Assembly (NCBI GenBank): GCA_964523395.1
Contig: CAZFXS010000008.1
Coordinates: 74,693 to 138,692 of the forward strand
Reading direction: 5' to 3'
DNA: 64,000 bases
Source of the DNA: an uncultured Chlorobiaceae bacterium
Lineage (GTDB): Bacteria > Bacteroidota > Ignavibacteria > UBA10030 > SZUA-254
In this document: positions 49,523-63,225 of the stretch, piece by piece
Layout: every line of letters starts with the position of its first letter
How positions within the stretch are numbered: position 1 is the first letter of the stretch
Translations under genes and position numbers: made by a program
Notes under the pieces: model-generated
Databases searched by the model: none
The model's input: the letters and a program-made list of their open reading frames with translations, nothing else
Told to the model about the DNA's origin: nothing

Positions 49523-50446
49523 TTATAACCTTTTGCGTATGATAAACTGCACTCTCTCAGGTTTTCTGCTGATAATTTTTAATTCTTCAGGAATGTTAAG
49601 CATGGGTATAATTGACTCAATTGAATCTTTCGTCAATAACTGATAATTAACAGTTGCCTGAATGCCATCATGTGAGATTGCGGATAGTTTTTCGATCCCG
49701 CCCCGTATGATAATATCAATCTTTGGAGGAGAAAAAATAACCTCCCGATTAGCTGGGACGGCTATTGCTGTTACCGGAACACCTGAAAATATTTTTTCCG
49801 CAAACGGCTGAACATTCATCGAGATATGCGTCAGAGTGCGGTTAATACGTACTGCAAATGTACCGGGTTCTTCGAGCGGAATATCCATGTTCACTGGAAT
49901 TTTCAGGCTCTCAAATTTTTTGTATATCGTCGGCCACTCTGAAATCTGGTCAATTCCGGATGCAGGACCGCCGATGATAACGCTTTCCGGCTGTATTGTT
50001 AAAGGACCAACTTGTCCATATCCTTCATGAAAATCGAACACAATCCGTGAAATAATCTTTACGCGTTTTTCTTTGTACTCCTCCATGGCAAGCACGAGAG
50101 TGTCAGGTTTAATGTCGGTAACCTGAACCGAAACAGGGAGTTTGATATGTTCGAGGACGTCTTTAGAGGTGACGATATATTTTTCCCGGCTTAGCGATGA
50201 GACATCAATATAATATTTGATGTCGGGAGTCAGCGAAAGCGCGGCAAGCATCCATCCGGTCCCGTGAAAGCGAACCATCATCTGTTTTGGAACTGGGTAT
50301 TTTAATGCCATCCCCTCCTTTTCATTTTCAAGCACTATTGGTATACTGCGAAACACCGTATACTCATTCCGCAAATTTACCGATATCCAGGTCACAAGCG
50401 CGAACAGGATCGATGCGATGACGATATGGTAGCGTTTATTTTCCAT
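49523..50446 (-). CDS. hypothetical membrane-anchored protein (possibly YbbR-like)
   Basis: N-terminal TM helix followed by repeated beta-rich segments. The family assignment is tentative. Confidence 0.35.
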   Translation of the reverse strand: MENKRYHIVIASILFALVTWISVNLRNEYTVFRSIPIVLENEKEGMALKYPVPKQMMVRFHGTGWMLAALSLTPDIKYYIDVSSLSREKYIVTSKDVLEHIKLPVSVQVTDIKPDTLVLAMEEYKEKRVKIISRIVFDFHEGYGQVGPLTIQPESVIIGGPASGIDQISEWPTIYKKFESLKIPVNMDIPLEEPGTFAVRINRTLTHISMNVQPFAEKIFSGVPVTAIAVPANREVIFSPPKIDIIIRGGIEKLSAISHDGIQATVNYQLLTKDSIESIIPMLNIPEELKIISRKPERVQFIIRKRL

Positions 50447-50602: not shown

Positions 50603-50640
50603 AATAAAAAACTCCATCCGTGATACACAGATGGAGTTTG
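50603..50640 (-). terminator. Rho-independent terminator (bidirectional-type hairpin) downstream of BMC-H gene
   Basis: AACTCCATC-cgtgatacaca-GATGGAGTT, flanked by an A-tract on the plus strand (a T-tract for minus-strand transcripts). Confidence 0.7.
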
Positions 50641-50655
50641 TTTTGTCCAACTACA

Positions 50656-51264
50656 TCATTTCGAAAATTTCGCCTTAATCAACTCCGCAATCAGTTCATC
50701 CCTGTTGGCACGCGAAATTTGCCTGCCAAAAATCGAGAGCCCCTGCACACCCCTTGCGTAATGCCTCAACTGATGGACCGACATCGCTTCAAGTTGCCCG
50801 CGATATGTTTGTTCATCGTTGCTCATTTCCATTGGTTCAGGTGAAGCGGGTGTTTGCTCCTCAGGCTTATTTGCAGTCGGGTCGATGGCAATTACAGCAG
50901 GTTTTTCTCTTTTGGGACGAGCGGGTTGTTTTTTCTCGCGAGCAGAAGTTGAAGGGCTTTCCTCGCGCGGCTTTTCTTTTGTTTGTCCGGGAGGCGGGTA
51001 AATCATAATTTCTGTATCATCGTCGGGGCGCGGGATAACATGGACGGAAACCAGCTCACCCACACGCTGTGCCGCTGCTGCACCGGCATCAACGGCGGCT
51101 CGCACTGCAGCGACATCGCCTTTGATTTTTATGGTCATCAATCCGGCATCGGCGCGTTCGCGGCCTACGAGTTCAATGTCGGCGGCTTTCGTTGCGGCAT
51201 CTGCCGCTTCAATTGCACCGATAAGCCCTTTGGTTTCTATGAGTCCTAATGCGTAATCAAGCAT
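50656..51264 (-). CDS. BMC-H (Pfam00936) microcompartment shell protein with Pro/Glu/Lys-rich linker and C-terminal Rho_N/SAP-like domain
   Basis: N-terminus LGLIETKGLIGAIEAADAATKAA...[32 protein letters not shown] is a canonical BMC domain. The C-terminus LEAMSVHQLRHYARGVQGLSIFGRQISRANRDELIAELI resembles the Rho termination factor N-terminal helix-extended-helix motif. Confidence 0.75.
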   Translation of the reverse strand: MLDYALGLIETKGLIGAIEAADAATKAADIELVGRERADAGLMTIKIKGDVAAVRAAVDAGAAAAQRVGELVSVHVIPRPDDDTEIMIYPPPGQTKEKPREESPSTSAREKKQPARPKREKPAVIAIDPTANKPEEQTPASPEPMEMSNDEQTYRGQLEAMSVHQLRHYARGVQGLSIFGRQISRANRDELIAELIKAKFSK

Positions 51265-51395
51265 GAAAATAATCCTGGAACCTTGTCCTGAGGAGTCCCC
51301 GCGTTAGCAGGAATGACGAAGGACCTGCCCTTGCTGGAGAGGATCCTTCGCCCCGATGAAATCGGGGCTCAGGATGATTCCTGCTAAAGCAGGAA

Positions 51396-51692
51396 TCACT
51401 TGCCTTGGGGACGTTTGGGAAGAATCATCTCCACATCCATGTGCGGACGCGGGATAACATGGACGGAAACCAATTCACCGACACGCTGAGCCGCTGCGGC
51501 TCCGGCATCTGTTGCCGCTTTTACTGCACCGACATCACCGCGCACCATCACCGTGACATATCCGCCGCCGATGACTTCTTTGCCGATGAGCGTAACCTTC
51601 GCGGCTTTTACCATTGCATCGGCTGCTTCGATGGAGCCGACGAGTCCTTTTGTCTCGACCATGCCTAACGCGTCGAGTGAAATATCTGCCAT
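51396..51692 (-). CDS. BMC-H microcompartment shell protein (PduA/EutM/CcmK-like)
   Basis: 98 aa. [25 protein letters not shown]...[35 protein letters not shown] is near-canonical PduA-type sequence. Confidence 0.85.
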
Positions 51693-51824
51693 GTAGAAAC
51701 TCCTTTCCGTCTATTATATATGGCCAAAATACGTGAATCGAATATACTGAATCGGGAGCATATTGTCAATTGCACCGCTTGTTTATGATTTTGGTGAAAA
51801 GCGGTTGATTTCTAATAAAAACAG

Positions 51825-51853: not shown

Positions 51854-51925
51854 GCTCCACACCATACCGTTCAGTTACTTTCTCAAAAGTAAAGCAAAGG
51901 GATATGATTTTTATTAGGAGTGAGG

Positions 51926-53980
51926 ATGAGCTTTAATTCTAAACTAACAGACCTGCTTAAAACTAACCCAAAATTTGTCGACGACAATGATGAATTACTC
52001 ATTGCCGCTGTACAAGACTTTGCATGGAAACTCGACCGGGATTTGATCAAGCTACTCCTTTCAAACGACGACATCAAAGCCAAGTTCTTCACCGAGATAG
52101 AAAAGCACTGGATTTTCAACATTAACACTTTCATTGATTACATCTCACAAAAGAATTTTCTAGACAATTCCTATACGCGTTTCAAAAACCGGATCGGGTT
52201 GACAATTGATGGCAAATATTTGCGCGAACGGGGTGAAGTAGCATTAGTCTGGCCATATAAGGACACAATCCTTGAGGGTGGACAAACAAAGGAAGAAGAA
52301 AAACGCCAGGAAATCTTTTTCAATGAAGTGCTCGCACCAGACGAGATTAACCGCTTGCTTGACCCAAAGGTTTTGACAAGCTTCACACGTTATACCGCTA
52401 AGGGTAAAGAAAACGTTAAGAGCTTCACGCGTGATGAGAACGGCATAATACGCGAAAACTTAATTCTCAAAGGGAACAACCTACTCGCTTTACATACACT
52501 CAAAAGCGAGTTTCGTGGACAAGTCAAATTGATTTATATTGACCCGCCGTACAATCTTGGCAACGATTCATTCGGATATAACGATAGTTTTAATCATTCC
52601 AGTTGGCTTACTTTCATGAAAAGCCGACTTGAAATTGCACATCAACTGTTAGAAAATAATGGGGCAATTTTTATCCAAATTGATTTACATGAATTAGGTT
52701 ACTTACAAGTATTGATGGATGAAATATTTGGCACAGAAAACAGAGTTCAGATTATCGCTGTAAAAACAGCCTCGCCAGCTGGGTTCAAAACAGTTAACCC
52801 TGGACCAATTGATGTTACAGAGTATATTTTGTTTTATACAAAAGATAGGAAATCTTTTAAATTCAGGAGAAATTATGTTGCAGTAGATTACGATGAGAAT
52901 TACGATTTATTCATTGACAACATTGACGACAAACCCGAAAAATGGAAACTCTTTCCATTGAGGGACGTGATTTATAATTTGAATGGTATTGAAATTGGCA
53001 AGACGGCACAGGCCTCATCAACAAATGCAAAAAAGATATGGGGTGAACATTGGAGGATTATTCGTCATCAAGTAATTGCAAAGTTTGCGCTTGAAAATGC
53101 AAATAAAGTTGTAAGTGTGCGGGACCCTCATAAGCCATCAACAAGGCTTAAAGAGGCTTTGCTTCAATCTAAAGAGAATCCTTCAAAAGTTATGGTATTC
53201 AAAAAAAATATTGATGATGATGAAATAAATGAAGACGCCAAAGGTGAAGCTTATTTATACAATGGTGGTGCTCTCTCTTTTTATTCGAACAAAGTCATTA
53301 TGTTGGACGGCGAGAAAACTCCAACTATGCTTTTAACTGATTTCTGGAATGATTTAAGTTGGGATGGTATTGCCAAAGAAGGTGGTGTTAAACTAAAGAA
53401 TGGCAAAAAACCAGAGAAGTTGATAAAAAGAATTATTGAAATGTCAGTTTCAAAAGGAGATGTAGTATTAGACTACCATTTAGGTAGCGGAACAACTGCT
53501 GCTGTAGCCCACAAATTAGGATGTCAGTACATTGGCATTGAACAACTTGATTACGGCGATAATGATAGTGTTAAAAGATTACAAAATGTTATTGAGGGTG
53601 ACACGTCTGGAATATCGAAATCCATTAACTGGCAAGGTGGTGGAAATTTTATTTACTGTGAACTAATGAAATACAACGACGTGTTCATCGATCGCATTCA
53701 GGCGGCAAAGACAAGCAAGGAATTGCTGAAAATCTGGCAAGAGATTGCCGAAGGTTCGTTCCTGAACTGGTATGTCAATCCGGAAATGCCCGATGATGCC
53801 GTGAAGGATTTCGAAGCGTTAGGAAATGAAGAAAACGGCTTTGAAAAACAACAACATTTGCTGGCAAGCCTCCTCGACAAGAACCAGTTATATGTGAATT
53901 ACTCGGAGATTGATGATGCAATGTTCAAGGTCAGCAAAGAAGACAAGGAATTGAACAAGGCGTTCTACGGGGAAATATAA
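51926..53980 (+). CDS. mod: Type III restriction-modification system methyltransferase (Mod) subunit, N6-adenine
   Basis: DPPY motif IV (LIYIDPPYNLG) and an AdoMet-binding region near the C-terminal third (VLDYHLGSGTT). Length is about 685 aa and a Res gene follows immediately. Confidence 0.85.
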   Translation: MSFNSKLTDLLKTNPKFVDDNDELLIAAVQDFAWKLDRDLIKLLLSNDDIKAKFFTEIEKHWIFNINTFIDYISQKNFLDNSYTRFKNRIGLTIDGKYLRERGEVALVWPYKDTILEGGQTKEEEKRQEIFFNEVLAPDEINRLLDPKVLTSFTRYTAKGKENVKSFTRDENGIIRENLILKGNNLLALHTLKSEFRGQVKLIYIDPPYNLGNDSFGYNDSFNHSSWLTFMKSRLEIAHQLLENNGAIFIQIDLHELGYLQVLMDEIFGTENRVQIIAVKTASPAGFKTVNPGPIDVTEYILFYTKDRKSFKFRRNYVAVDYDENYDLFIDNIDDKPEKWKLFPLRDVIYNLNGIEIGKTAQASSTNAKKIWGEHWRIIRHQVIAKFALENANKVVSVRDPHKPSTRLKEALLQSKENPSKVMVFKKNIDDDEINEDAKGEAYLYNGGALSFYSNKVIMLDGEKTPTMLLTDFWNDLSWDGIAKEGGVKLKNGKKPEKLIKRIIEMSVSKGDVVLDYHLGSGTTAAVAHKLGCQYIGIEQLDYGDNDSVKRLQNVIEGDTSGISKSINWQGGGNFIYCELMKYNDVFIDRIQAAKTSKELLKIWQEIAEGSFLNWYVNPEMPDDAVKDFEALGNEENGFEKQQHLLASLLDKNQLYVNYSEIDDAMFKVSKEDKELNKAFYGEI

Positions 53981-56572
53981 ATGCCAGATCAGTTTTTATA
54001 TCAGTCTTTAGACGCTTTCTCACAATTTGGCGGGTTGAAAAAAGAAATTCCCGATTCGATTAAATTGAATCTCAATCCTAAATTCGAGTTGCGCCCTTAT
54101 CAAGTAGAAGCCTTTGCGCGTTTTTTCCATTGCCATAACAATGACTTTCCCAACAAAACATTACCCCTGCATTTCCTCTTCAACATGGCTACGGGAAGCG
54201 GCAAAACACTTATCATGGCAGGACTGATTCTTCATCTTTTTCAGCAAGGCTACCGTAATTTCCTTTTCTTTGTTAATTCCACCAATATCATTGAAAAGAC
54301 CAGGGACAATTTCCTGAACCCGGCTTCCATAAAATACCTTTTCAATTCAGAAATCAATATCGGAAACCGTCATGTTCGCATTACGCCTGTCAACAATTTT
54401 GAAGGGGTAAGCCAAAACGATATTAACATCTGCTTTACCACGATTCAAAAACTCCATTCCGATCTGACGACCGAAAAAGAAAACGCCATTACCTTTGAGG
54501 ATTTCCGCAAGCACAAGGTTGTGCTGATAGCCGATGAAGCACACCATATGAATGTGCAGACAAAGACACAGGAAGAGATGTTTGAAAACTGGGAGAACAC
54601 AGTGCAGAAAATTTTCGAGCAGAACTGGGAAAACCTGTTGCTCGAATTTACCGCAACGCATGATTTTACTTATCCGGCAATGGTAGAAAAATATCGCAAC
54701 AAAGTCATTTTCCGCTACGACCTGCCGGAATTCCGGAATGACCGTTTTTCCAAAGATGTCACGCTGGTATATTCTGACTTTGATTTAAACGAACGGATAC
54801 TTCAGGCGCTGATTCTTAGTCAATACAAACAGGAAGTTGCCGCAAAATATCGAATTAACCTGAAACCGGTTATTCTTTTTAAAGCACAACGGACTATAGC
54901 ACAGTCGCAGGAAAACAAAACCAATTTTCACGCTATCATTGAGGCATTAAACTCAAAGCATATCGCTAAAATCCGCAAATCGGACATTCAAATTATTCAA
55001 CGCGCTTTTCAGTTCTTCGACGAAAACAATATCAGCGATCAGCAGCTTACGGAAAGATTAAGGAGGGAATTTCACAACGATTTTTGCCTGTCAGTCAATG
55101 ACGAAGAAGAAAAGGAAAATTATCAAGTCCTCGTTAATACGCTTGAAGACAAAAACAATCGCATCCGGGCAATTTTTGCAGTACAAAAACTAAATGAAGG
55201 CTGGGACGTTCTAAACCTGTTCGATATTGTTCGCTGTTATGAAACACGCGACGCGCGATATGGAAAACCCGGAAGCACAACGACATCAGAGGCTCAATTG
55301 ATTGGTCGTGGAGCTCGTTATTTTCCGTTTGTTCTTTCTGAAGAGTTTAGCATCAGCGGGATTGAAGCAAACGACCGTTTCCGCCGAAAGTTTGACGGTA
55401 ATCTTGATCACGAGCTGCGGGTTATAGAAGAGTTGCACTATCATAGTATCAACGACAATCGTTATATCCCCGAAATAACACGCGCACTCATTGAGCATGG
55501 TATCATCGATGAGACGGAGATTACAAAAGAAATTAAACTCAAAGAATCTTTCAAGAAAGCGGAGTTTTATAAATATGGCCTGGTCTTCATAAACGATCGG
55601 ATAAAAAAGGATTATCAGAGCGTTCATTCTTTTTCAGACTTAGGTGTAAAGAAAAGGAATTATATACACGTTATCGCCACCGGCCACGGAGGCGCTCAAG
55701 CTGTTTTGGCGAAGAGTAATAAAGGTACGATTACTAAGGAGGAAACCAGAAAAGATATACCTCTCAAACAAATCGAAACTAACATTACACAATCAGCTAT
55801 TGCCAGAAATCCCTTCTATCGATTTAGCACACTCAAGCAATACTTTCCCCACCTCGAATCCATGCGGGAATTTATTTTATCTGAGCAATATCTTGGCGGA
55901 TTGGAAATTACATTTCAAGGCAACGTTTATCAAATTGAAAACAATAAGATTGAAAAGCTAAATGCCGTGCAGGCTTTGCTCGGGGAAATTGAAGCAGGGA
56001 TCCGCCAACAAATTACAGAGTATCAGGGATCAAAAAACTTTCGAAACAACCGTATTCAAGATGTCTTTACAAACAAGTTGCTAAAATTCTCCAAAGACAA
56101 TGAACGCGGTAAAGACGATAGTCAATTTGAACACTTTGTGTCTACAAAAGACTGGTTTGCCTTCAACACAATTTATGGAACTAGTGAAGAAAAGGCATTT
56201 GTTCGTATGCTGGACAGGCATATTGAGAAACTAAAGGCACAATTTCAAAGCATTTACCTTCTCCGTAACGAAGGTCATTTTGCGATATACAATTTCTCCG
56301 ATGGAAGGGCATTTCAACCTGATTTCGTTTTGTTCATACAAGAAAAAAACGGAAAATCGCTTACCTTTCAATTGTTTATCGAGCCAAAAGGAGCTCATCT
56401 CAAAGAGCACGACCGCTGGAAAGAAACATTCCTGAAGGAAATTAAAGAAGAATTCGGGAACAAGATTTTGAAGATCGAAGATAAATCGAAGTATCGTTTG
56501 ATCGGCGTACCATTTTATAACAATGAGGATGAAAATGATTTTAAGGAAAACCTTTGGAAAGCCATTTCCTAA
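53981..56572 (+). CDS. res: Type III restriction endonuclease (Res) subunit, SF2 helicase-like
   Basis: Walker A (MATGSGKT) and a DEAH box (IADEAHH). Length is 863 aa. The start codon lies 1 nt after the mod stop. Confidence 0.85.
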   Translation: MPDQFLYQSLDAFSQFGGLKKEIPDSIKLNLNPKFELRPYQVEAFARFFHCHNNDFPNKTLPLHFLFNMATGSGKTLIMAGLILHLFQQGYRNFLFFVNSTNIIEKTRDNFLNPASIKYLFNSEINIGNRHVRITPVNNFEGVSQNDINICFTTIQKLHSDLTTEKENAITFEDFRKHKVVLIADEAHHMNVQTKTQEEMFENWENTVQKIFEQNWENLLLEFTATHDFTYPAMVEKYRNKVIFRYDLPEFRNDRFSKDVTLVYSDFDLNERILQALILSQYKQEVAAKYRINLKPVILFKAQRTIAQSQENKTNFHAIIEALNSKHIAKIRKSDIQIIQRAFQFFDENNISDQQLTERLRREFHNDFCLSVNDEEEKENYQVLVNTLEDKNNRIRAIFAVQKLNEGWDVLNLFDIVRCYETRDARYGKPGSTTTSEAQLIGRGARYFPFVLSEEFSISGIEANDRFRRKFDGNLDHELRVIEELHYHSINDNRYIPEITRALIEHGIIDETEITKEIKLKESFKKAEFYKYGLVFINDRIKKDYQSVHSFSDLGVKKRNYIHVIATGHGGAQAVLAKSNKGTITKEETRKDIPLKQIETNITQSAIARNPFYRFSTLKQYFPHLESMREFILSEQYLGGLEITFQGNVYQIENNKIEKLNAVQALLGEIEAGIRQQITEYQGSKNFRNNRIQDVFTNKLLKFSKDNERGKDDSQFEHFVSTKDWFAFNTIYGTSEEKAFVRMLDRHIEKLKAQFQSIYLLRNEGHFAIYNFSDGRAFQPDFVLFIQEKNGKSLTFQLFIEPKGAHLKEHDRWKETFLKEIKEEFGNKILKIEDKSKYRLIGVPFYNNEDENDFKENLWKAIS

Positions 56573-56645
56573 ATAAAAACCGGAACTCGGCTCGGAGGTC
56601 ACAACAATGATGCAGTGTAGTGAAATAAAATAGTGCCGTAAAATC

Positions 56646-57284
56646 ATGCCCGGATCTATCCCGCAACCCACATATATTTACAGAATAGCGCATTATTCCA
56701 ATCTCGAGTTTATTCTTCACAATGGTTTATGCTGTCCAAACCATGAAATACGGGATCCAAATTATATGAACATCGGGCATCGAACACTCATTGATTCCCG
56801 TGGATTACGGGAAGTTCCCATTGCACCGTTTGGGGTTCTTAATGATTACGTACCGTTCTACTTCACCAAGAAATCCCCAATGTTATATGTTATTTCGAAA
56901 CATAATGTCCCTGATTATACCGGTGGACAGGGCGAGATTATTTACCTCGTTAGCTCCGCGCAAGATGTTGCACAGGCGAATATTCCCTTTGTCTTTACCA
57001 ACAGACATTCGAAAATTGGGTACGCTGAATTTCGTAACAATTTGAAGGATCTTTCAATAATCGATTGGGATGTGATTAAAGGAGAACGGTGGAATAATAC
57101 ACCAACAGAGTACGATCGCCAAGAGAAGAAGCAAGCTGAATTCCTGGTGCATCAGCGAATGCCGATTGAACTGGTACGGGGCATCGCTTGCTTTAATGAT
57201 AAAATTTTTCATATTATTCAACAAACGCTCTTAGAAAACAACAAAACAATTCCTGTACGCAAAATGCCGAGCTGGTACTATTGA
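56646..57284 (+). CDS. darT: DarT-like ssDNA thymidine ADP-ribosyltransferase toxin (DUF4433)
   Basis: N-terminus IYRIAHYSNLEFILHNGL matches the DUF4433 start. A conserved Glu lies in the QAEFLV block near the C-terminus. A macrodomain gene follows immediately downstream. Confidence 0.65.
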   Translation: MPGSIPQPTYIYRIAHYSNLEFILHNGLCCPNHEIRDPNYMNIGHRTLIDSRGLREVPIAPFGVLNDYVPFYFTKKSPMLYVISKHNVPDYTGGQGEIIYLVSSAQDVAQANIPFVFTNRHSKIGYAEFRNNLKDLSIIDWDVIKGERWNNTPTEYDRQEKKQAEFLVHQRMPIELVRGIACFNDKIFHIIQQTLLENNKTIPVRKMPSWYY

Positions 57285-57288
57285 TCGC

Positions 57289-58344
57289 ATGATAACAACT
57301 ACAAAAGGAAATATCCTTCAAGCCGATACCGAGGCAATCGTTAATACCGTAAATACGGTCGGTGTTATGGGAAAGGGAATTGCTTTACAATTCAAAGAAA
57401 CTTTCCCTGAAAATTACAAATTATATCGTGATGCAGTCGCAAGAAAAGAAATTGCTGTCGGAAAAGTATTTGTAACCGAGACACATCAACTTTCAAACCC
57501 TAAATACATTATTAACTTTCCGACAAAAACTCATTGGAAAGGAAAATCCAAATACGAATTTATTGAGAAGGGTCTTGAAGACTTATCAAGAATCATTACA
57601 GAAAAAAAGATTCACTCTGTATCGGTTCCTCCCTTAGGATGCGGAAACGGCGGACTCCGCTGGGAAAAAGTCCGGAAATTAATTGTCGAGAAATTGCAGG
57701 GATTGAAGAACGTTACGATTGTACTATATGAACCTATTGCCTTGGTTCCTCAACTGAATAAACAAGAAAAACCTGCTGAGCTTACTCAATCCCGTGCATT
57801 AGTTTTAGCATTGATTAAACGCTATACCATTCTTGGATATGAAGTCACATTACTCGAAATTCAAAAGCTGGCATATTTTCTTCAGCGGTTCGGTGAGCAA
57901 TTAAAACTTCAATATGTAGCTCAAGATTTCGGGCCTTATGCATATAATCTAATGTTTTTGCTGCGCAACCTTGAGGGACCATACCTTACCGGGAAGAAGA
58001 AAATTGCCGATACAAAGCCTTTTGACACAATCAACATCCAGCAAGACAAAATCAATGCTGTCGAAACGTATATTCTAAAAAATTGCACATCTGAGCAACA
58101 ACAAAGACTTCAGACAGTGTATGATCTTATCCAAGGATTCGAATCTCCATTGGGAATGGAACTACTCGCAACCGTCGACTGGATTATGAATAAGACTGCA
58201 AATGACCAACGTACTATTGAAAATACCATTGCAGGCGTACATAGTTGGAATGAGCGTAAAAAGAAGCTTATGAAGGCGCAATACATAAAAGCTGCATACG
58301 ATCGGTTAATTACATTCAACAAAACCCTCTACGCTAATAATTAA
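57289..58344 (+). CDS. darG: DarG-like antitoxin (N-terminal macrodomain + C-terminal DarT-binding domain)
   Basis: Macro domain with GNILQADTEAIVNTVNTVGVMGKGIALQF and PPLGCGNGG. Length is about 350 aa. The start lies 4 nt after the darT stop. Confidence 0.7.
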   Translation: MITTTKGNILQADTEAIVNTVNTVGVMGKGIALQFKETFPENYKLYRDAVARKEIAVGKVFVTETHQLSNPKYIINFPTKTHWKGKSKYEFIEKGLEDLSRIITEKKIHSVSVPPLGCGNGGLRWEKVRKLIVEKLQGLKNVTIVLYEPIALVPQLNKQEKPAELTQSRALVLALIKRYTILGYEVTLLEIQKLAYFLQRFGEQLKLQYVAQDFGPYAYNLMFLLRNLEGPYLTGKKKIADTKPFDTINIQQDKINAVETYILKNCTSEQQQRLQTVYDLIQGFESPLGMELLATVDWIMNKTANDQRTIENTIAGVHSWNERKKKLMKAQYIKAAYDRLITFNKTLYANN

Positions 58345-58429: not shown

Positions 58430-60970
58430 ATGGCGTTCACCAGGACAGTAAAAATCTGGACTATCATTCTCGGCATTCCGGTATTTCTCCTCCTCGCCGG
58501 AGTCATATTTGCCAAAGTCTATTTTACATCAGAGCGGCTGAAAGCAATGGTGATCCCGCAAATTGTCGATGCCACGCATAGAGATGTTGGACTAAAAGAT
58601 ATTTCCCTCTCTGTCTTCCCCACGATCGCAGTTTCCATGGAAAGCCTGACAATTGCCAACCCCACAACCGGCACGTTTGAATCCGCTCATTTTATTTCCC
58701 TCGGAGAACTGGATGTTAACGTCAAAATATTGCCATTACTTGGCGGTAGCGTTGAGATCAGCGAAATAATCCTGAACAACCCGCACATTGCACTCGAAGT
58801 AACAAAAGACGGATTGAAGAATTATAAATTTGGCAAAGGAGATGAACCCGCTTCTGCTCCGAAAACATCGGCGGAGGGTTCTTCCGGCGAATTACTCATC
58901 GGAAATTTTCAGATACATAACGGCACTATAGAATCCATCAATAAAAAGTTCGATACGAGGATGCTCATCGAGGGCTTTGAGCAGACAACAAGCGCTGAAA
59001 TGCACCAGGGAGAGAACGCGTTAAAAATTCACGGAAGAACTTCCATCTCAACGTTCAGCTATGGCACACTCGGCGCGTGGTACATCAGCGATCAACCGGT
59101 GACGGCAACTGAAGAGCTTTCCTACTCCGCCGGAAAAGATGTTTTAACATTTGACGCGACTGAAATAAAAATAAGAGACTTGCCTCTGAAAGTGACCGGA
59201 ACAATTGCAGATGTAATGCAGGAAACATTGCAGATGGATCTTGCCGTCACCGCACCGAATGTTACCATGCAGCAGCTTCTTTCGTTGATTCCTCCCGAAA
59301 AACTAAAAGCCGCCGAAGGCATGACAAGCACCGGCGATGTCAGTTTCAGCTTGACGATGAAAGGCCCTTCAAGTGAGACCATGAACCCGGAAACGAAAGG
59401 AACATTTACGATATCAAACGGAACTGTCCAATACTCGGGGTTACCAAAGGCAATTACCGGCATTCAGGTCAACGGCATGTTTGAGCAACCATCCGCGCCG
59501 ATCGATAATAAGGATATCGGCACATTCAGCATCAATCAATTTTCGGCGAAGCTCGGAACAAACACCATCGACGGCAAACTGAAGGTGAATAACTTTAATA
59601 ACCCGACTCTTGCTACAACGCTCAATTGCGCAATGAATCTCGACGAGGTAAAAGAATTTTATCCGCTCGAGAAAGGAACAGAGCTTCACGGACTCATGAA
59701 AGCTGCTGTTACAATTAACGGTAAGCCGAAGATTCAGGAGTCTATCAAAGCCGATGGAAATGTCGAGTTTAAGAACGTGACAATGAAAACCGCGACTTCA
59801 CCGAAACCGTTGCAGAATCTTAACGGCAACATTACATTTAACAACCAAGTGGTCGAATCGAAACAGCTTGCAATGAACATCGGCGAGTCTGATATGAATC
59901 TTTCTTTCAGCGTGAAAAATTACCTTGGCATGGTGATGAAAGATTCTGCAAAGGGCAGCAGCAAGCCAACGGCAGCCCTCACACTAAAATCGAAACAGCT
60001 TCGCATAGCCGACCTCATGTCCGAAGAAAGTGCCGCAGCACCCGCATCATCGGGCGCCGGAAAAAGCGCACCACCTGCTGCAGCGGGCATCCTGCCGGGA
60101 ATGAAAGTCAATGCTGATGTTTCCATCGACAAACTCGTCACAGAAAAATTCACATTTACCAATGCCCGCGGTACTGCCGCCATGTCGGACGGCATTATTA
60201 ACCTCAATCAGTTTTCTGTCAATGCCTTTGACGGCACGATCAATACCAAGGGGATGATCGACCTCCGCGATCCGAAGAAAACTCCGTTTGATTTCAATCT
60301 CGATATCAAGAATGTGGAATCAAGTTCTCTCTTACCGAATTTCACATCGTTTGGCAAATATCTCTTTGGGAAATTTTCCACCTCTACAAAATTGAAGGGC
60401 GATCTGAATGATACGCTTGGATTAGACCCACAGTCATTACTCGGCAATGGCACTGTGTTGATTTCGGAAGGAAAGCTCCTCGGATTGCCGATCATGGAGA
60501 AACTTTCCAATCTTATTAACGTGAGCGAATTGAAGTCGGTGAATTTTAAGGATTGGACAAACGGATTCACCATTGAAAACGGCAGACTAAGCGTAAAAGA
60601 CCTTAAAGTGAATGCAGGAGAAACAGGGTTCTTCCTGAACGGTTCACAAGGGCTTGACGGTTCGTTAGATTATTCTCTGAATGTTAAATTGCCGGAATCA
60701 TTTTCCAACCGGATTAAACTTCCCGGTGTCGGCAATCAGTTATTAGAATATTTCAAGGACAAGGATGGAAAGATCAGTTTGAGTTTTGGTGTCGGCGGCG
60801 CAATGGATAACCCGGCGATCAAAATAGATACTAAGTCGCAGGAGGAAATGGCAAAGCAGGCGCTTGAACAAAAGAAACAAAAAGCGATTGATGACGCGAA
60901 GAAGAAACTTGATGATGAGCTGAAGAAAAAGCTTGGCGACGGGCTCAAGAACATTTTAAAGAAACCGTAA
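58430..60970 (+). CDS. AsmA-family outer-membrane assembly protein
   Basis: N-terminal TM anchor. A long beta-rich periplasmic region with AsmA-like organisation. A C-terminal Lys/Glu-rich helix. Confidence 0.65.
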   Translation: MAFTRTVKIWTIILGIPVFLLLAGVIFAKVYFTSERLKAMVIPQIVDATHRDVGLKDISLSVFPTIAVSMESLTIANPTTGTFESAHFISLGELDVNVKILPLLGGSVEISEIILNNPHIALEVTKDGLKNYKFGKGDEPASAPKTSAEGSSGELLIGNFQIHNGTIESINKKFDTRMLIEGFEQTTSAEMHQGENALKIHGRTSISTFSYGTLGAWYISDQPVTATEELSYSAGKDVLTFDATEIKIRDLPLKVTGTIADVMQETLQMDLAVTAPNVTMQQLLSLIPPEKLKAAEGMTSTGDVSFSLTMKGPSSETMNPETKGTFTISNGTVQYSGLPKAITGIQVNGMFEQPSAPIDNKDIGTFSINQFSAKLGTNTIDGKLKVNNFNNPTLATTLNCAMNLDEVKEFYPLEKGTELHGLMKAAVTINGKPKIQESIKADGNVEFKNVTMKTATSPKPLQNLNGNITFNNQVVESKQLAMNIGESDMNLSFSVKNYLGMVMKDSAKGSSKPTAALTLKSKQLRIADLMSEESAAAPASSGAGKSAPPAAAGILPGMKVNADVSIDKLVTEKFTFTNARGTAAMSDGIINLNQFSVNAFDGTINTKGMIDLRDPKKTPFDFNLDIKNVESSSLLPNFTSFGKYLFGKFSTSTKLKGDLNDTLGLDPQSLLGNGTVLISEGKLLGLPIMEKLSNLINVSELKSVNFKDWTNGFTIENGRLSVKDLKVNAGETGFFLNGSQGLDGSLDYSLNVKLPESFSNRIKLPGVGNQLLEYFKDKDGKISLSFGVGGAMDNPAIKIDTKSQEEMAKQALEQKKQKAIDDAKKKLDDELKKKLGDGLKNILKKP

Positions 60971-60973
60971 CGA

Positions 60974-61792
60974 ATGCGGAAACAGCTCGCAGTCCGCATC
61001 AAACCTAAACAATCCCTTGGGCAGAATTTTCTTGTTGACGATAATATTGTCCGCAATATTGTCAGAGACCTTAATTTACAAAAAGACGATATTGTAGTTG
61101 AAATCGGGCCGGGATTAGGTGCGCTTACCAGGGAACTTGCAAAGAACCTTGAGCGATTGATTGTTGTAGAAATTGATCAACGGGCGGTTGAAAAACTCAC
61201 AAAGGAATTTTCGGGATCAAATGTCACTGTTATCCATGGCGATATACTTGATATTCCTTTCGCGAACATCAGCAAGCAATCAGGCCGCAATATCAGGGTG
61301 ATCGGAAATATCCCGTACCACCTGACAAGTCCAATCCTGTTCAAAGTGTTTGATGAGCACGCCTCCGTCCGCGATCTTACCATCATGATTCAGCGTGAGG
61401 TTGCCAAACGTATACTTGCGGAGCCGGGATCAAAAGAGTACGGAATTTTATCCGTGATAACCCGTTGGCACGGCAAGCCAAGGATGTTATTCAGTGTCTC
61501 GCCAAATTGTTTTTATCCGAAACCGAAAGTAACCTCAGCCGTTATACAGATTACTCTTCATAAAAACGCGCCTTATAATGTAAATAATGTTATATTGACG
61601 ACCATCGTCAAGACCGCGTTTGGAAAAAGACGGAAAGTATTGCGGAACAGTTTGACCTATCTTCCATACGACGAGGCAATTGTACGAAAAATAATTTCCG
61701 AACAACGGGAAATGATGGACCGGCGTCCGGAACAGCTTACATTGGAAGAATTCGCAGAACTCGCAGGAATATTTCAACAGAATATGCAATGA
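60974..61792 (+). CDS. rsmA: 16S rRNA (adenine1518/1519-N6)-dimethyltransferase
   Basis: N-terminus LGQNFLVDDNIV, an AdoMet motif (VVEIGPGLGALT) and the NIPYHLTSPIL block. Confidence 0.9.
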   Translation: MRKQLAVRIKPKQSLGQNFLVDDNIVRNIVRDLNLQKDDIVVEIGPGLGALTRELAKNLERLIVVEIDQRAVEKLTKEFSGSNVTVIHGDILDIPFANISKQSGRNIRVIGNIPYHLTSPILFKVFDEHASVRDLTIMIQREVAKRILAEPGSKEYGILSVITRWHGKPRMLFSVSPNCFYPKPKVTSAVIQITLHKNAPYNVNNVILTTIVKTAFGKRRKVLRNSLTYLPYDEAIVRKIISEQREMMDRRPEQLTLEEFAELAGIFQQNMQ

Positions 61793-63225
61793 CAGAGCAG
61801 CAAAACAACAATATTGATCCGATTATCGTCAGTGAAGATCCGGTTCTTACATCGCAGGTTCGCGGCGTAAAAACCATTGAAGTTGATGATGAGTTGATGG
61901 ATGATATCCGGGAACTTGTGCGCGACCGCGCAGGCGCTATCCTGCTTAACATTATCACAGATCTGCATGCCGCTGACATTGCCGAAATAATCGACCGGCT
62001 CGATGCCGAAGACCGCGCGTTTGTCTTCAACCTGCTCGAGCCATCCGTCGGCAGCGCTGTCCTTCTTGAATTGAACGATGATGTCCGCAGCGCGTTACTC
62101 GAACCGCTGACATCGGAAAAAATCACTTCATATGTTGACACACTCGCTTCGGATGATGCCGCGGATCTTGTCGCAGAACTGCCGCCGAGCGTTGCGGATA
62201 CCGTTCTTCGTTCCATGCCTGCAGAAGATTCCTCCGAAGTCAAAGAGCTCATGCAGTATGGCGAGGACACCGCCGGCGGTATCATGGGAACTGAGTTTAT
62301 CTCGGTAAAAATGAACGACACCGTGAACCAGGCAATACGCGAAGTACGTGCAAGCGCGAAACAGGGAATGCAGATTTATAATGTCTTTGTTGTGAATGAA
62401 GAAGGTGTGCTCGTCGGTGTGCTGCCGCTGCAATCACTGGTGCTTCATTCGCCAAACCGCAGAGTGTATAAAATTATGGAAACAGATGTGAAAAGCATCA
62501 GCACTGATGTGGACCAGGAGGAAGTGGCTTCGATGTTCCGTAAGTACGACCTGATTTCGCTTGCGGTTGTTGACAAAGAGAGTAAACTTGTCGGACGCAT
62601 CACTATCGATGATGTTGTGGACGTTATCGAACAGGAGCACAGCGAGGATGTCGCGCGCTTGGTCGGTTCCGACGCGGAAGAACTTGAACGACGCTCACCT
62701 GCGCAAATTGCGTTACTCCGTTTGCCATGGGTACTAATAACGCTTGCGCTTGAATTCATGGCCGGTATTGTTATCCACTATTTCGATTCAACGCTCAGCC
62801 GCGTAATTTTGCTTGCGTCGTTCATGCCTATTATTTCAGCTATCTCGGGAAATACAGGTTTACAGTCAGCCGCGATTATTGTTCGAGCGATGGCAACAGG
62901 GCATGTTTCTCTCGATCGCTGGTGGCAACCTGTGTGGAAACAGCTTCAAACAACTCTCATCATTGGTTCAGTATGTGGAATTGTCATTGGAGTAGTCGGC
63001 GCAATTTGGCAGGGGAAGTGGGAGTTTGGGCTTGTTGTGGGAGTATCAATGCTCACCTCGATCAATATCTCAGGTGTTGTAGGAACTTGCTCACCGATGC
63101 TTTCTAAACGTTTTGGTTTTGATCCTGCACTTACCGCAGGGCCGTTTGAAACGGCATTCCAGGATGTTGTCGGAATATCGATCTTCCTTTCACTGGCAAC
63201 ATTCCTTCTTCACTGGATAGCGTAA
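61789..63225 (+). CDS. mgtE: magnesium transporter MgtE
   Basis: N-domain, tandem CBS domains, and a C-terminal 5-TM MgtE domain (AGIMGTEF...[14 protein letters not shown]). Confidence 0.9.

Follow-up and report, generated by a model that had tools for sequence, protein, structure and literature searches.

A probable FRAG1 pair of BMC-H shell genes and the predicted helix-extended-helix tail of its longer protein

The shell gene pair and its surroundings

The stretch of DNA analysed here, 64 kb in length and hereafter the window, carries two adjacent microcompartment (BMC) shell genes on its minus strand, which encode proteins of 98 and 202 aa (Table 1). The preliminary description had placed two BMC-H genes of the PF00936 family at this position, and both open reading frames were recovered with exactly the ends that it gave. 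With 100.3 and 95.5 bits, respectively, both proteins exceed the PF00936 gathering cut-off of 24.5 bits, and by this score each has a single non-permuted BMC-H domain. The 98-aa protein would form the basal hexamer of the shell facets. Its edge motifs are V-K-A-A-K and I-P-R-P-H, and an orthologue of 95-98 aa precedes the tailed gene in all 17 of the FCB-group loci examined. The same protein obtains 135.8 bits with the NCBIfam EutM model (cut-off 133); as a caution for annotation, it should not be named 'EutM' in genomes without eut genes.

The 202-aa protein is composed of a BMC domain, a linker and a C-terminal module, as had been described, and the linker and tail sequences quoted at that time are present. 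The edge motifs of the BMC domain are T-K-A-A-D and I-P-R-P-D, which retain the edge lysine, Lys26, and the P-R-P element (as PRPD); K26, P78, R79 and P80 are invariant among 38 homologues. In the AF2 monomer model this domain has the canonical beta-alpha-beta order at a pLDDT of ~90. The linker is predicted to be disordered, as its pLDDT is ~49-66 and it is modelled without secondary structure, and its length and sequence differ between homologues. Very long and strongly acidic linkers occur in other subfamilies (P0169, P0179, P0259), and in one subfamily the linker contains a second conserved amphipathic motif, D-T-I-S-R-L-R-R-E-A-L-G. Of 120 orthologues, 36 have a GRP (AT-hook-like) core in the linker, which in 30 of them is directly preceded by a basic residue. 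The canonical AT-hook, an R-G-R-P core with basic flanks, is not found in the 202-aa window protein, which has K-K-Q-P-A-R-P-K-R instead.

Table 1. Features of the shell gene pair and its immediate surroundings (coordinates of the window)
Feature	Coordinates	Strand	Remarks
Sigma-70-like promoter candidate, upstream of first shell gene	51741..51769	-	TTGACA-17-TATATT, 11/12 matches
Basal BMC-H hexamer shell protein, 98 aa	51396..51692	-	PF00936 E 5.7e-29; IGGG pore loop; standard edge motifs
Structured 131-nt spacer between the shell genes	51265..51395	-	RNA MFE -60 kcal/mol, z -5.8 (200 shuffles)
Tailed BMC-H protein, 202 aa	50656..51264	-	PF00936 E 1.8e-27
BMC domain of tailed protein, residues 1-88	51001..51264	-	PF00936 at residues 5-80; pore loop R-A-D-A-G
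Pro/Glu/Lys-rich flexible linker, residues 89-146	50827..51000	-	starts with conserved Y-P-P-P-x-Q-T-K-E-K-P
C-terminal helix-extended-helix (Rho_N/SAP-like) domain with acidic lead-in, residues 147-202	50659..50826	-	
Intrinsic-terminator-like hairpin	50609..50639	-	14-bp stem and T-run; 17 nt past stop codon of tailed gene
YbbR/CdaR-family membrane protein, 307 aa	49523..50446	-	N-terminal transmembrane helix; assigned by homologues

The promoter candidate is a consensus pattern match only, and the sigma-70 consensus may not be that of this lineage. In a 92%-identical relative (L087) the homologous spacer is 129 nt long and its base changes preserve the hairpins, while L001 and L004 have a spacer of just 42-48 nt. 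A MITE or REP family was considered for the hairpin-rich intergenic sequences and was not established, as they have no further copies in the 64-kb window and neither they nor the 131-nt spacer matched a family in Rfam.

All six-frame ORFs of the window were searched with phmmer, the probes being E. coli EutN/M/K/L/S and 14 Eut/Pdu proteins of Ca. Formimonas warabiya. No BMC-P, BMC-T, PduS, aldehyde dehydrogenase (AldDH) or PTAC was found in the 64-kb window, nor any other shell or cargo locus within ±10 kb of the pair in the 17 FCB-group loci. The pair is not enclosed by a complete BMC locus within the window, and the lack of vertex, trimer and cargo genes noted in the preliminary description was borne out. 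The neighbours are also those originally named, namely pdxJ (E 2.5e-99; 236 aa, profile coverage 1-233 of 234), a YbbR-like gene and a defence island with type III Mod/Res, DarT and a macro-domain (DarG-like) gene. The pdxJ gene adjoins the pair in the closer relatives checked (L001, L004, L009, L087, L088) and not across phyla; since its adjacency is limited in this way and its product has no terminal extension, pdxJ was rejected as a cargo candidate. The 307-aa neighbour has no Pfam match of its own, but PF07949 (YbbR) is present in many homologues, for which the names YbbR or CdaR are in use. This gene lies directly downstream on the same strand in Ignavibacteria, in Rhodothermales (L015, L027) and in a Bacteroidota MAG (L054). 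It is a conserved downstream neighbour, and its functional link to the pair is only putative. The pair itself keeps its syntenic position in Ignavibacteria, Rhodothermales and Bacteroidota alike. Housekeeping genes (asmA, rsmA, pdxJ, ETF) surround it in conserved synteny.

The C-terminal domain of the tailed protein

The fusion is conserved in relatives, a point for which the preliminary description had asked. More than 120 full-length homologues of the tailed protein, with 60-92% identity at 100% coverage, were found in Ignavibacteria and Bacteroidota MAGs, and the alignment of 38 homologues delineates a conserved domain of ~50 aa after the variable linker. The domain is basic (pI 10.4 for residues 157-202) and has 11 invariant positions among the 38 homologues; Arg167, Arg171 and Arg181 are invariant, and the invariant residues of the tail are mostly exposed arginines. 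From these 11 positions the tail appears to be under strong purifying selection and so would not be incidental. The AF2 model gives it three or four helices at a pLDDT of 89.9, that is, an ordered domain.

The earlier likening of the tail to Rho_N and SAP stood in part. The predicted fold is indeed helix-extended-helix (HeH), but the window copy scores 18.1 bits with Rho_N (PF07498) as the full protein and 22.0-22.5 bits as the isolated tail, under the gathering threshold of 24.9 bits, and it has no match to SAP (PF02037) at E<=10. The Rho_N alignment places residues 157-199 onto model positions 1-38, with an inter-helix loop ~5 residues longer than that of the model. Among 55 homologues, Rho_N is matched by 41 at E<=0.01 (best 1.5e-5) and SAP_RNF34_RFFL by a single one, at 0.002. 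In three dimensions the predicted tail resembles the N-terminal helical subdomain of Rho, which is the closest small-rmsd structure; the HeH fold is common to the tail model, SAP and LEM, and the latter two fit nearly as well as Rho. The window tail differs from Rho_N, SAP and LEM domains in an extra N-terminal helix and the longer inter-helix loop. Foldseek of the tail against the PDB gave no significant match (best Rho, E 3.2), and the tail profile found nothing among PDB sequences at E<=10. Judged by its model, the tail belongs to the HeH fold or superfamily, while strict membership of the Rho_N family fails the Pfam threshold for the window copy.

Not every HeH domain binds nucleic acid; the LEM domain, for instance, binds the protein BAF. 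For the present tail, the pI of 10.4, the invariant arginines and the AT-hook-like motifs of 36 of the 120 orthologues are indirect pointers to DNA binding. Against a DNA tether are the window copy, in which the canonical AT-hook is missing, and the long acidic linkers found elsewhere, which would not favour contact with DNA.

Relation to FRAG1 and to the EutK-slot proteins

Assigned from the pair and the 64-kb window alone, the locus is very probably the BMC-H pair of a FRAG1 ('fragmented') BMC from an Ignavibacteria-like bacterium. FRAG1 was introduced as a shell-protein-only type which is most prominent in Ignavibacteria, and the tailed BMC-H architecture was described for it in the same place (Sutter et al. 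2021, Nat Commun 12:3809, Supplementary Data 2). Its genomes contain a BMC-P triplet (green, grey and orange clades) and often PduS/PduT (Supplementary Data 2), while encapsulation-peptide HMMs found nothing in them (supplement of the same study). Its taxonomic range comprises Ignavibacteria, Kryptonia, Bacteroidetes, Chlorobi and Rhodothermaeota (Sutter et al. 2021), and the shell genes of FRAG types are spread over up to six genomic locations (main text). The window agrees with this description in its Ignavibacteria-type lineage, the signature of two BMC-H genes, the tailed architecture and the dispersal of shell genes without adjacent enzymes, and no contradiction was found. The named homologues of the tailed protein come from Ignavibacteria, Ignavibacteriae or Bacteroidota MAGs, within the range of FRAG1, and the same pair is present in Chlorobiales, Rhodothermales and Bacteroidota loci among the matches listed in the contig scan.

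Two expectations of the preliminary description have to be revised in this light. As one of two options it had suggested satellite genes serving a BMC locus elsewhere, the other being a shell protein with an unusual tethering or nucleic-acid-binding function. No further shell or cargo genes accompany the pair in the window or in the 17 loci; FRAG1, however, has no main locus, and up to six sites share its shell genes. It had also regarded the tail as a module not expected on a shell protein, which does not hold, because the architecture is already part of the FRAG1 description and recurs in a large set of BMC fusions and in the EutK slot of Firmicutes EUT2 loci (see below). The type is already catalogued, and the domain assignment of the tail and its link to Firmicutes proteins are modest additions. 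In the FRAG1 catalogue the ordered domain is neither assigned a fold nor related to proteins of Firmicutes, and the conserved YbbR-like gene beside the pair is not recorded. To our knowledge no cargo or inducer of FRAG1 is known, no compartment has been imaged and the orientation of the shell has never been determined. In a literature search no source other than the 2021 catalogue and its preprint mentioned 'FRAG1'. FRAG-type BMCs count among the least understood microcompartments despite their wide occurrence in Ignavibacteria and allied phyla.

An exhaustive search with the tail profile returned 574 protein clusters (50% identity), nearly all of which are BMC fusions. Among the best 150 of the 574, nearly all have the tail domain at or close to the C-terminus; a recognisable BMC domain accompanies it in 99 of these 150, and the remainder consists mostly of fragments and of divergent proteins that are BMC-like. 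In five Firmicutes, one of them Ca. Formimonas warabiya, the fusion is encoded immediately upstream of an aldehyde dehydrogenase, in complete or near-complete loci with EutABC, EutL, EutN, PduS/T, EutQ, EutM and PTAC. The FRAG1-tail profile matches four of these five Firmicutes tails with 22.9-61.7 bits, and the Blautia tail (L081) has no match at E<=0.01. The BMC-H proteins in the EutK slot of Firmicutes EUT2-type loci (Ca. Formimonas warabiya, Desulfitobacterium, Lutispora; cf. C. difficile CD1916) have the same order of BMC-H, disordered linker and C-terminal HeH domain, and their tails share with FRAG1 the motif M-[TS]-V-x-x-L-R-x-x-A-R...G-R-x-I-S-x-A-N. The BMC domains are only ~38-41% identical to that of the window protein, and the Firmicutes genes lie inside complete cargo-bearing loci (EutABC, AldDH, PTAC, EutN), whereas the window pair stands isolated amid housekeeping genes. 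By sequence comparison, the FRAG1 tail is homologous to that of the Firmicutes EutK-slot protein. As these ethanolamine-utilising Firmicutes are genetically tractable, the homology provides a concrete experimental handle.

Enterobacterial EutK (EUT1 of E. coli and Salmonella) is a similar case, in which a linker joins the BMC-H domain to a small helical domain at the C-terminus that carries positive charge and is a proposed nucleic-acid binder, and R-P-D-D-D-T directly after the BMC domain is common to both proteins. The EutK tail is reportedly a helix-turn-helix or winged-helix-type domain. The NCBIfam EutK model (NF012010) aligns with residues 5-102, the BMC part only, and its 88.8 bits are far under the cut-off of 218; the C-terminal domains have no detectable sequence similarity in hhalign of the tail profile against the single E. 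coli EutK C-terminus (probability 0.3%).

A candidate outward tether and its alternatives

The explanation that we favour, and consider reasonably probable, is a FRAG1 BMC-H pair in which the HeH tail is an outward tether that positions the compartments. The mechanism in its specific form, with nucleic acid as the anchor and positioning as the result, is proposed more tentatively and by analogy. The 202-aa protein would form a further hexamer, presumably a minor one, and by its conserved edge lysine and PRP motifs would tile into the facets together with the basal hexamer. In solved shells, according to the structure of the HO shell, the concave face reportedly points outward. Both termini of BMC-H are on this concave face (PMC5534457). 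Because the C-terminus would emerge on the cytosol-facing side, the disordered linker of ~60 residues is expected to display the tail outside the shell, six copies of a small basic HeH domain per hexamer. The most likely role of the tail would then be to anchor the compartment to a polyanion in the cytosol, probably nucleoid DNA, so that compartments would be distributed within the cell and inherited instead of clumping at the poles. Such a role would be functionally analogous to that of the unrelated C-terminal domain of enterobacterial EutK. In a Salmonella delta-eutK strain the Eut BMCs are polar and static, for which the study puts forward the positively charged tail of EutK as a nucleotide binder and mediator of partitioning; the location of Pdu BMCs likewise depends on PduK, a protein with a C-terminal extension (PMC12487888).

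The tail might instead be a protein-docking module that recruits a cytosolic partner (an enzyme, a ParA/McdA-like ATPase, a cytoskeletal or membrane protein) or cross-links shells or shell proteins during assembly. The near restriction of the domain to BMC proteins would fit a BMC-specific partner, the long acidic linkers of other subfamilies suit a fly-casting tether over a DNA clamp, and the amphipathic linker motif of one subfamily resembles a peptide-docking helix. However, the only consistently adjacent gene encodes the YbbR-like protein, most of which, to judge from CdaR, probably lies outside the cytoplasm; the tail domain is strongly basic with mostly exposed arginines as its invariant residues, and the AT-hook-like motifs of 30% of the close orthologues point to DNA. 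We regard docking as rather unlikely, though worth keeping in mind. That the tail is a genuine Rho-derived module, linking the shell to transcription termination or Rho-dependent RNA handling, is hardly credible, even if Rho_N is its best profile match and Rho its closest structure. Besides the score under threshold and the nearly equal fit of SAP and LEM, hhalign of the tail profile against the single E. coli Rho N-terminus (approximate query sequence) detected no similarity, and the Rho OB-fold and ATPase parts are missing. Rho_RNA_bind was not found in the window protein, where the HeH domain occupies the extreme C-terminus of a BMC-H protein and not the N-terminus before an OB-fold, as in a helicase, or a eukaryotic chromatin protein. 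In Rho, moreover, the helical subdomain is not the RNA-contacting OB fold. A literature search for Rho_N or Rho termination together with microcompartments or EutK returned nothing relevant.

Two further readings concern the compartment rather than the tail. The two hexamers might build no closed compartment and assemble into open sheets, into tubes or into a protein lattice associated with the nucleoid, whose role would be housekeeping or structural; FRAG1 would then not be a metabolosome. It is established that BMC-H proteins alone form sheets and tubes (discussed in PMC5534457), FRAG1 has no known cargo enzyme or encapsulation peptide, and the pair sits amid asmA, rsmA, pdxJ and ETF in conserved synteny. 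The BMC-P triplet and frequent PduS/PduT reported from FRAG1 genomes nevertheless imply closed, redox-connected shells, and genuine EUT metabolosome loci encode a shell protein with a homologous tail, which makes an open lattice improbable. The pair could also be a plain satellite of a conventional main BMC locus in another part of the genome, for example of MIC4 type, to which it would contribute additional hexamers and so tune shell permeability, the tail being incidental. Satellite loci were called common and perhaps permeability-tuning by Sutter et al. (2021), and components of both MIC4 and FRAG1 occur in Melioribacter roseus. This is quite improbable in view of the conserved syntenic position of the pair in Ignavibacteria, Rhodothermales and Bacteroidota, its match to the specific two-BMC-H signature of FRAG1, and the purifying selection on the tail.

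A much wider version of the outward tether can be formulated, which we consider doubtful. HeH-tailed BMC-H proteins might constitute a large unrecognised class (at least 574 clusters at 50% identity), extending from FRAG1 of the FCB group to the EutK slot of Firmicutes, which would anchor BMCs directly to the nucleoid. Positioning and inheritance would then be achieved by one protein and independently of an ATPase, in a manner distinct from McdAB, and in Ignavibacteria the tail would mark a possibly constitutive nucleoid-associated organelle. The link to the recent EutK finding on compartment distribution suggests that a hexamer, a flexible linker and a small binding domain are a recurrent solution for which different domains have been used. 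The proposed outcome is the same for McdAB and PduK, by which BMCs are spread via the nucleoid or another cellular scaffold (PMC12487888). McdAB employs McdB as an adaptor distinct from the shell, along with a ParA-type ATPase on DNA, whereas in the window the putative binding module is fused to the hexamer itself and no ParA-like gene is linked to it.

The shell gene pair and its surroundings

Both BMC-H reading frames of the preliminary description, a basal one and a tailed one, were confirmed in place on the minus strand, and their BMC domains are indeed canonical, scoring 100.3 bits (98 aa) and 95.5 bits (202 aa) with PF00936 against a Pfam cut-off of 24.5 bits. The edge Lys and PRP motifs are kept in both proteins. 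In the 202-aa protein the BMC domain covers residues 5–80 and is followed by the Pro/Glu/Lys-rich linker and the C-terminal module that had been quoted for it. The reported isolation of the pair was borne out by phmmer over all six-frame ORFs of the 64-kb window. The probes were EutN/M/K/L/S of E. coli together with 14 Eut/Pdu proteins of one complete Firmicutes locus; apart from the pair itself, they detected neither a shell protein nor PduS, aldehyde dehydrogenase or PTAC. The neighbours named earlier (pdxJ, a YbbR-like gene and a defence island) are all present in the window.

Coordinates of the shell genes, their signals and their neighbours (window positions, unless a locus from another genome is named)
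Feature	Position	Strand	Remarks
Basal BMC-H gene	51396–51692	minus	98 aa
Tailed BMC-H gene	50656–51264	minus	202 aa
Spacer between shell genes	51265–51395	minus	131 nt, very stable fold
Sigma-70-like promoter candidate	51769–51741	minus	consensus match 11/12
Terminator-like hairpin	50639–50609	minus	strong; 14-bp stem and T-run, just past stop codon of tailed gene
307-aa membrane protein	49523–50446		homologues YbbR/CdaR-family
Defence island	51920–58344		~6.4 kb, inserted between shell genes and asmA
Type III R-M Mod	51920–53980
Type III R-M Res	53981–56572
DarT	56646–57284
Macro-domain DarG-like gene	57289–58344
asmA-rsmA-mgtE	58430–63225
YbbR/CdaR-family neighbour in relatives	L015 3301–4323; L027 3477–4532; L054 6452–7462; others

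With a promoter match upstream and a terminator-like hairpin downstream, the pair looks like a self-contained two-gene unit in this genome. The spacer has a predicted folding energy of −60 kcal/mol (z −5.8) and no match to an Rfam family. The homologous spacer of L087, a locus from a 92%-identical relative, is 129 nt long with base changes that keep the hairpins, and such conservation with hairpin-preserving substitutions is seen in both L087 and the compared locus L088. The spacer length is just 42–48 nt in more distant relatives. The structured spacer might govern how strongly one hexamer is expressed relative to the other; alternatively, a palindromic element may have been inserted here.

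The 98-aa hexamer, like the cluster members P0393–P0404, is publicly named 'ethanolamine utilization microcompartment protein EutM'. It scores 135.8 with the NCBIfam EutM equivalog model, just above the cut-off of 133, and passing this cut-off explains the label on relatives without nearby eut genes. Since no eut gene lies nearby, the name is likely over-specific.

Assignment to FRAG1 and conservation of the locus

The 'fragmented' type FRAG1 is entered in Supplementary Data 2 of Sutter et al. 2021 (Nat Commun 12:3809) with 57 shell-protein-only loci. It is most prominent there in Ignavibacteria and occurs also in Kryptonia, Bacteroidetes, Chlorobi and Rhodothermaeota, and a shell-protein extension had already been noticed. 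This description matches the pair, and therefore the 'orphan' status is the defining property of the catalogued type. The locus belongs to this functionally obscure kind, and its two genes are very probably the FRAG1 BMC-H pair, judged from the 64-kb window and from related loci. In the literature searched, no later FRAG1 paper was found.

The fusion of BMC domain and tail is conserved in relatives; the tailed protein has >120 full-length homologues (60–92% identity, 100% coverage, 190–234 aa), all named ones being from Ignavibacteria, Ignavibacteriae or Bacteroidota MAGs. The preliminary view that such a tail is unexpected on a shell protein is not supported, since the extension is catalogued for FRAG1 and the fusion is widespread.

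The order BMC-H, tailed BMC-H, YbbR-like gene, pdxJ is kept in relatives from several sources. Next come, on the opposite strand, a BFN/UVR nuclease gene and ETF-alpha/beta, and asmA-rsmA lies divergently upstream. The defence island is missing from the syntenic site in L087 and two further loci (L001, L004), in which asmA abuts the BMC-H gene. The pair was also found in Ignavibacteriales, Chlorobiales/Chloroherpetonaceae, Rhodothermales and Bacteroidota genomes, and is the sole shell locus within ±10 kb in 17/17 such loci. A YbbR-like gene stands directly downstream of it in Ignavibacteria, Rhodothermales and one Bacteroidota MAG; this adjacency is unusually deeply conserved, far deeper than that of pdxJ. 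The conserved neighbour, without mention in the consulted passages of the 2021 catalogue, is an addition to existing knowledge.

Fold and distribution of the tail

In the full-length AlphaFold2 model, built from a 38-sequence alignment, residues 1–85 form a confident BMC fold (pLDDT about 90), residues about 90–145 are unstructured (pLDDT about 50), and the C-terminal domain is helical (H151–160, H163–172, H185–199). Modelled on its own with 55 homologous tails, the tail reached pLDDT 89.9 and pTM 0.74; it is thus predicted to be ordered, not disordered. Its score against Rho_N (PF07498; gathering score 24.9 bits) was 18.1 bits within the full-length protein and 22.0–22.5 bits for the tail alone, too low for membership of this Pfam family by its threshold. 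Among the 55 homologous tails, 41 matched Rho_N at E≤0.01 (best 1.5e-5), and no other family recurred in the profile search. The figures for SAP and LEM domains were DEK 5.8, FAN1 5.1, PIAS1 4.1, emerin 3.9, SLX4 3.9, Hcc-1 3.8 and Ku70 3.8. Foldseek gave no significant match with the tail (top, Rho, E 3.2, TMq 0.64), a sequence search against the PDB found none, and hhalign detected no similarity to single Rho and single EutK sequences. Taken together, these results support a helix-extended-helix (HeH) domain of the Rho_N/SAP/LEM superfamily; the earlier Rho_N/SAP-like reading stands at superfamily level, while its Rho_N part stays below the Pfam threshold. Recognising an HeH fold in the 'ordered domain' is an addition to existing knowledge.

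An exhaustive tail-profile search of 1.84 billion representative proteins gave 574 clusters at E≤1e-3 and 84 at E≤1e-10. In nearly all of the best 150 of the 574, the domain is C-terminal or near it; 99 of these 150 carry a recognisable BMC domain, and most of the others are either fragments of genes or proteins whose N-terminus is BMC-like but divergent. Linker length varies between about 40 and about 350 residues, and linker character between basic and extremely acidic.

Tailed BMC-H proteins also occur in five Firmicutes (Ca. Formimonas warabiya, a Bacillota MAG, Lutispora, Desulfitobacterium and Blautia), in all five immediately upstream of an aldehyde dehydrogenase. The loci are complete or near-complete ethanolamine-type, with EutABC, EutL, EutT, EutJ, EutS, EutN, PduS, PduT, EutQ, EutM and PTAC. 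The gene occupies the same slot as 'EutK' of C. difficile (CD1916, 702 nt, between EutL and EutE). The FRAG1-tail profile matches four of the five tails (22.9–61.7 bits); that of Blautia (L081) gave no match at E≤0.01, although it looks similar by eye. Judged from these sequence matches, the HeH module recurs as a homologous extension of shell hexamers, those of bona fide metabolosomes included. This homology to EutK-slot proteins of Firmicutes EUT2-type loci is again new to existing knowledge. The enterobacterial EutK tail, in contrast, is unrelated in sequence to the FRAG1-type tail, and no paper tying EutK or microcompartments to Rho_N was found in the literature searched.

Possible role of the tail and variant architectures

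In solved shells, the concave face of the hexamers reportedly faces the cytosol. Both termini of BMC-H lie on this face (PMC5534457). If the tailed protein co-assembles with the basal hexamer as a minor tile, each tailed hexamer would expose six linker-borne HeH domains on the outer side of the shell, and these could tether the compartment to the nucleoid or nucleic acid and so spread compartments. The best guide to what the tail may bind is functional analogy. In Salmonella delta-eutK, compartments gather at the poles and turn static; the authors proposed that EutK, through its positively charged tail, binds nucleotides to partition BMCs, and PduK, with its C-terminal extension, likewise affects Pdu BMC location (PMC12487888).

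Besides this analogy, three features of the tailed proteins led us to the tether reading. Of the structural neighbours of the tail that are HeH domains, most bind DNA. Residues 157–202 have a pI of 10.4, and the invariant positions, which include R167, R171, R181 and a G-R-x-I-S-x-A-N turn, have arginines consistent with polyanion binding. A GRP core is present in the linker of 36/120 close orthologues (P0007, P0016–P0019, P0031 and P0040 among others), in 30 with a basic residue just before it, and many are AT-hook-like, [KR]-R-G-R-P-[RPK]-K; in the linker of the window copy the motif is degenerate and reads K-K-Q-P-A-R-P-K-R. Counting against a nucleic-acid tether are the acidic linkers of other subfamilies and the fact that some HeH domains are protein binders. 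The main rival is that the tail is a protein-docking module, which we regard as unlikely; we tentatively favour, at somewhat less than even chances, a tether to the nucleoid or to nucleic acid by which compartments are spread.

Several variant architectures were observed. P0169, P0179 and P0259 have extremely Asp/Glu-rich linkers of 270–350 residues between the BMC and HeH domains. A longer Ignavibacteriales subfamily of 220–290 aa (29 of the 150 representatives; L008, L010, L013, L019, L021) carries in its linker a second conserved amphipathic motif, S-x-D-T-I-S-R-L-R-[RK]-E-A-L-G, which resembles an encapsulation-peptide-like helix. In P0146, P0155, P0166, P0188, P0191 and P0216, the same C-terminal HeH domain follows an N-terminal domain that is BMC-like but strongly divergent and escapes the BMC profile made for this analysis; these proteins may form a second, unrecognised shell-like family. 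Rare non-BMC contexts are P0210, a membrane protein with an HeH module and then a SPOR-like C-terminus, and P0184 and P0207, with three tandem HeH-like repeats.
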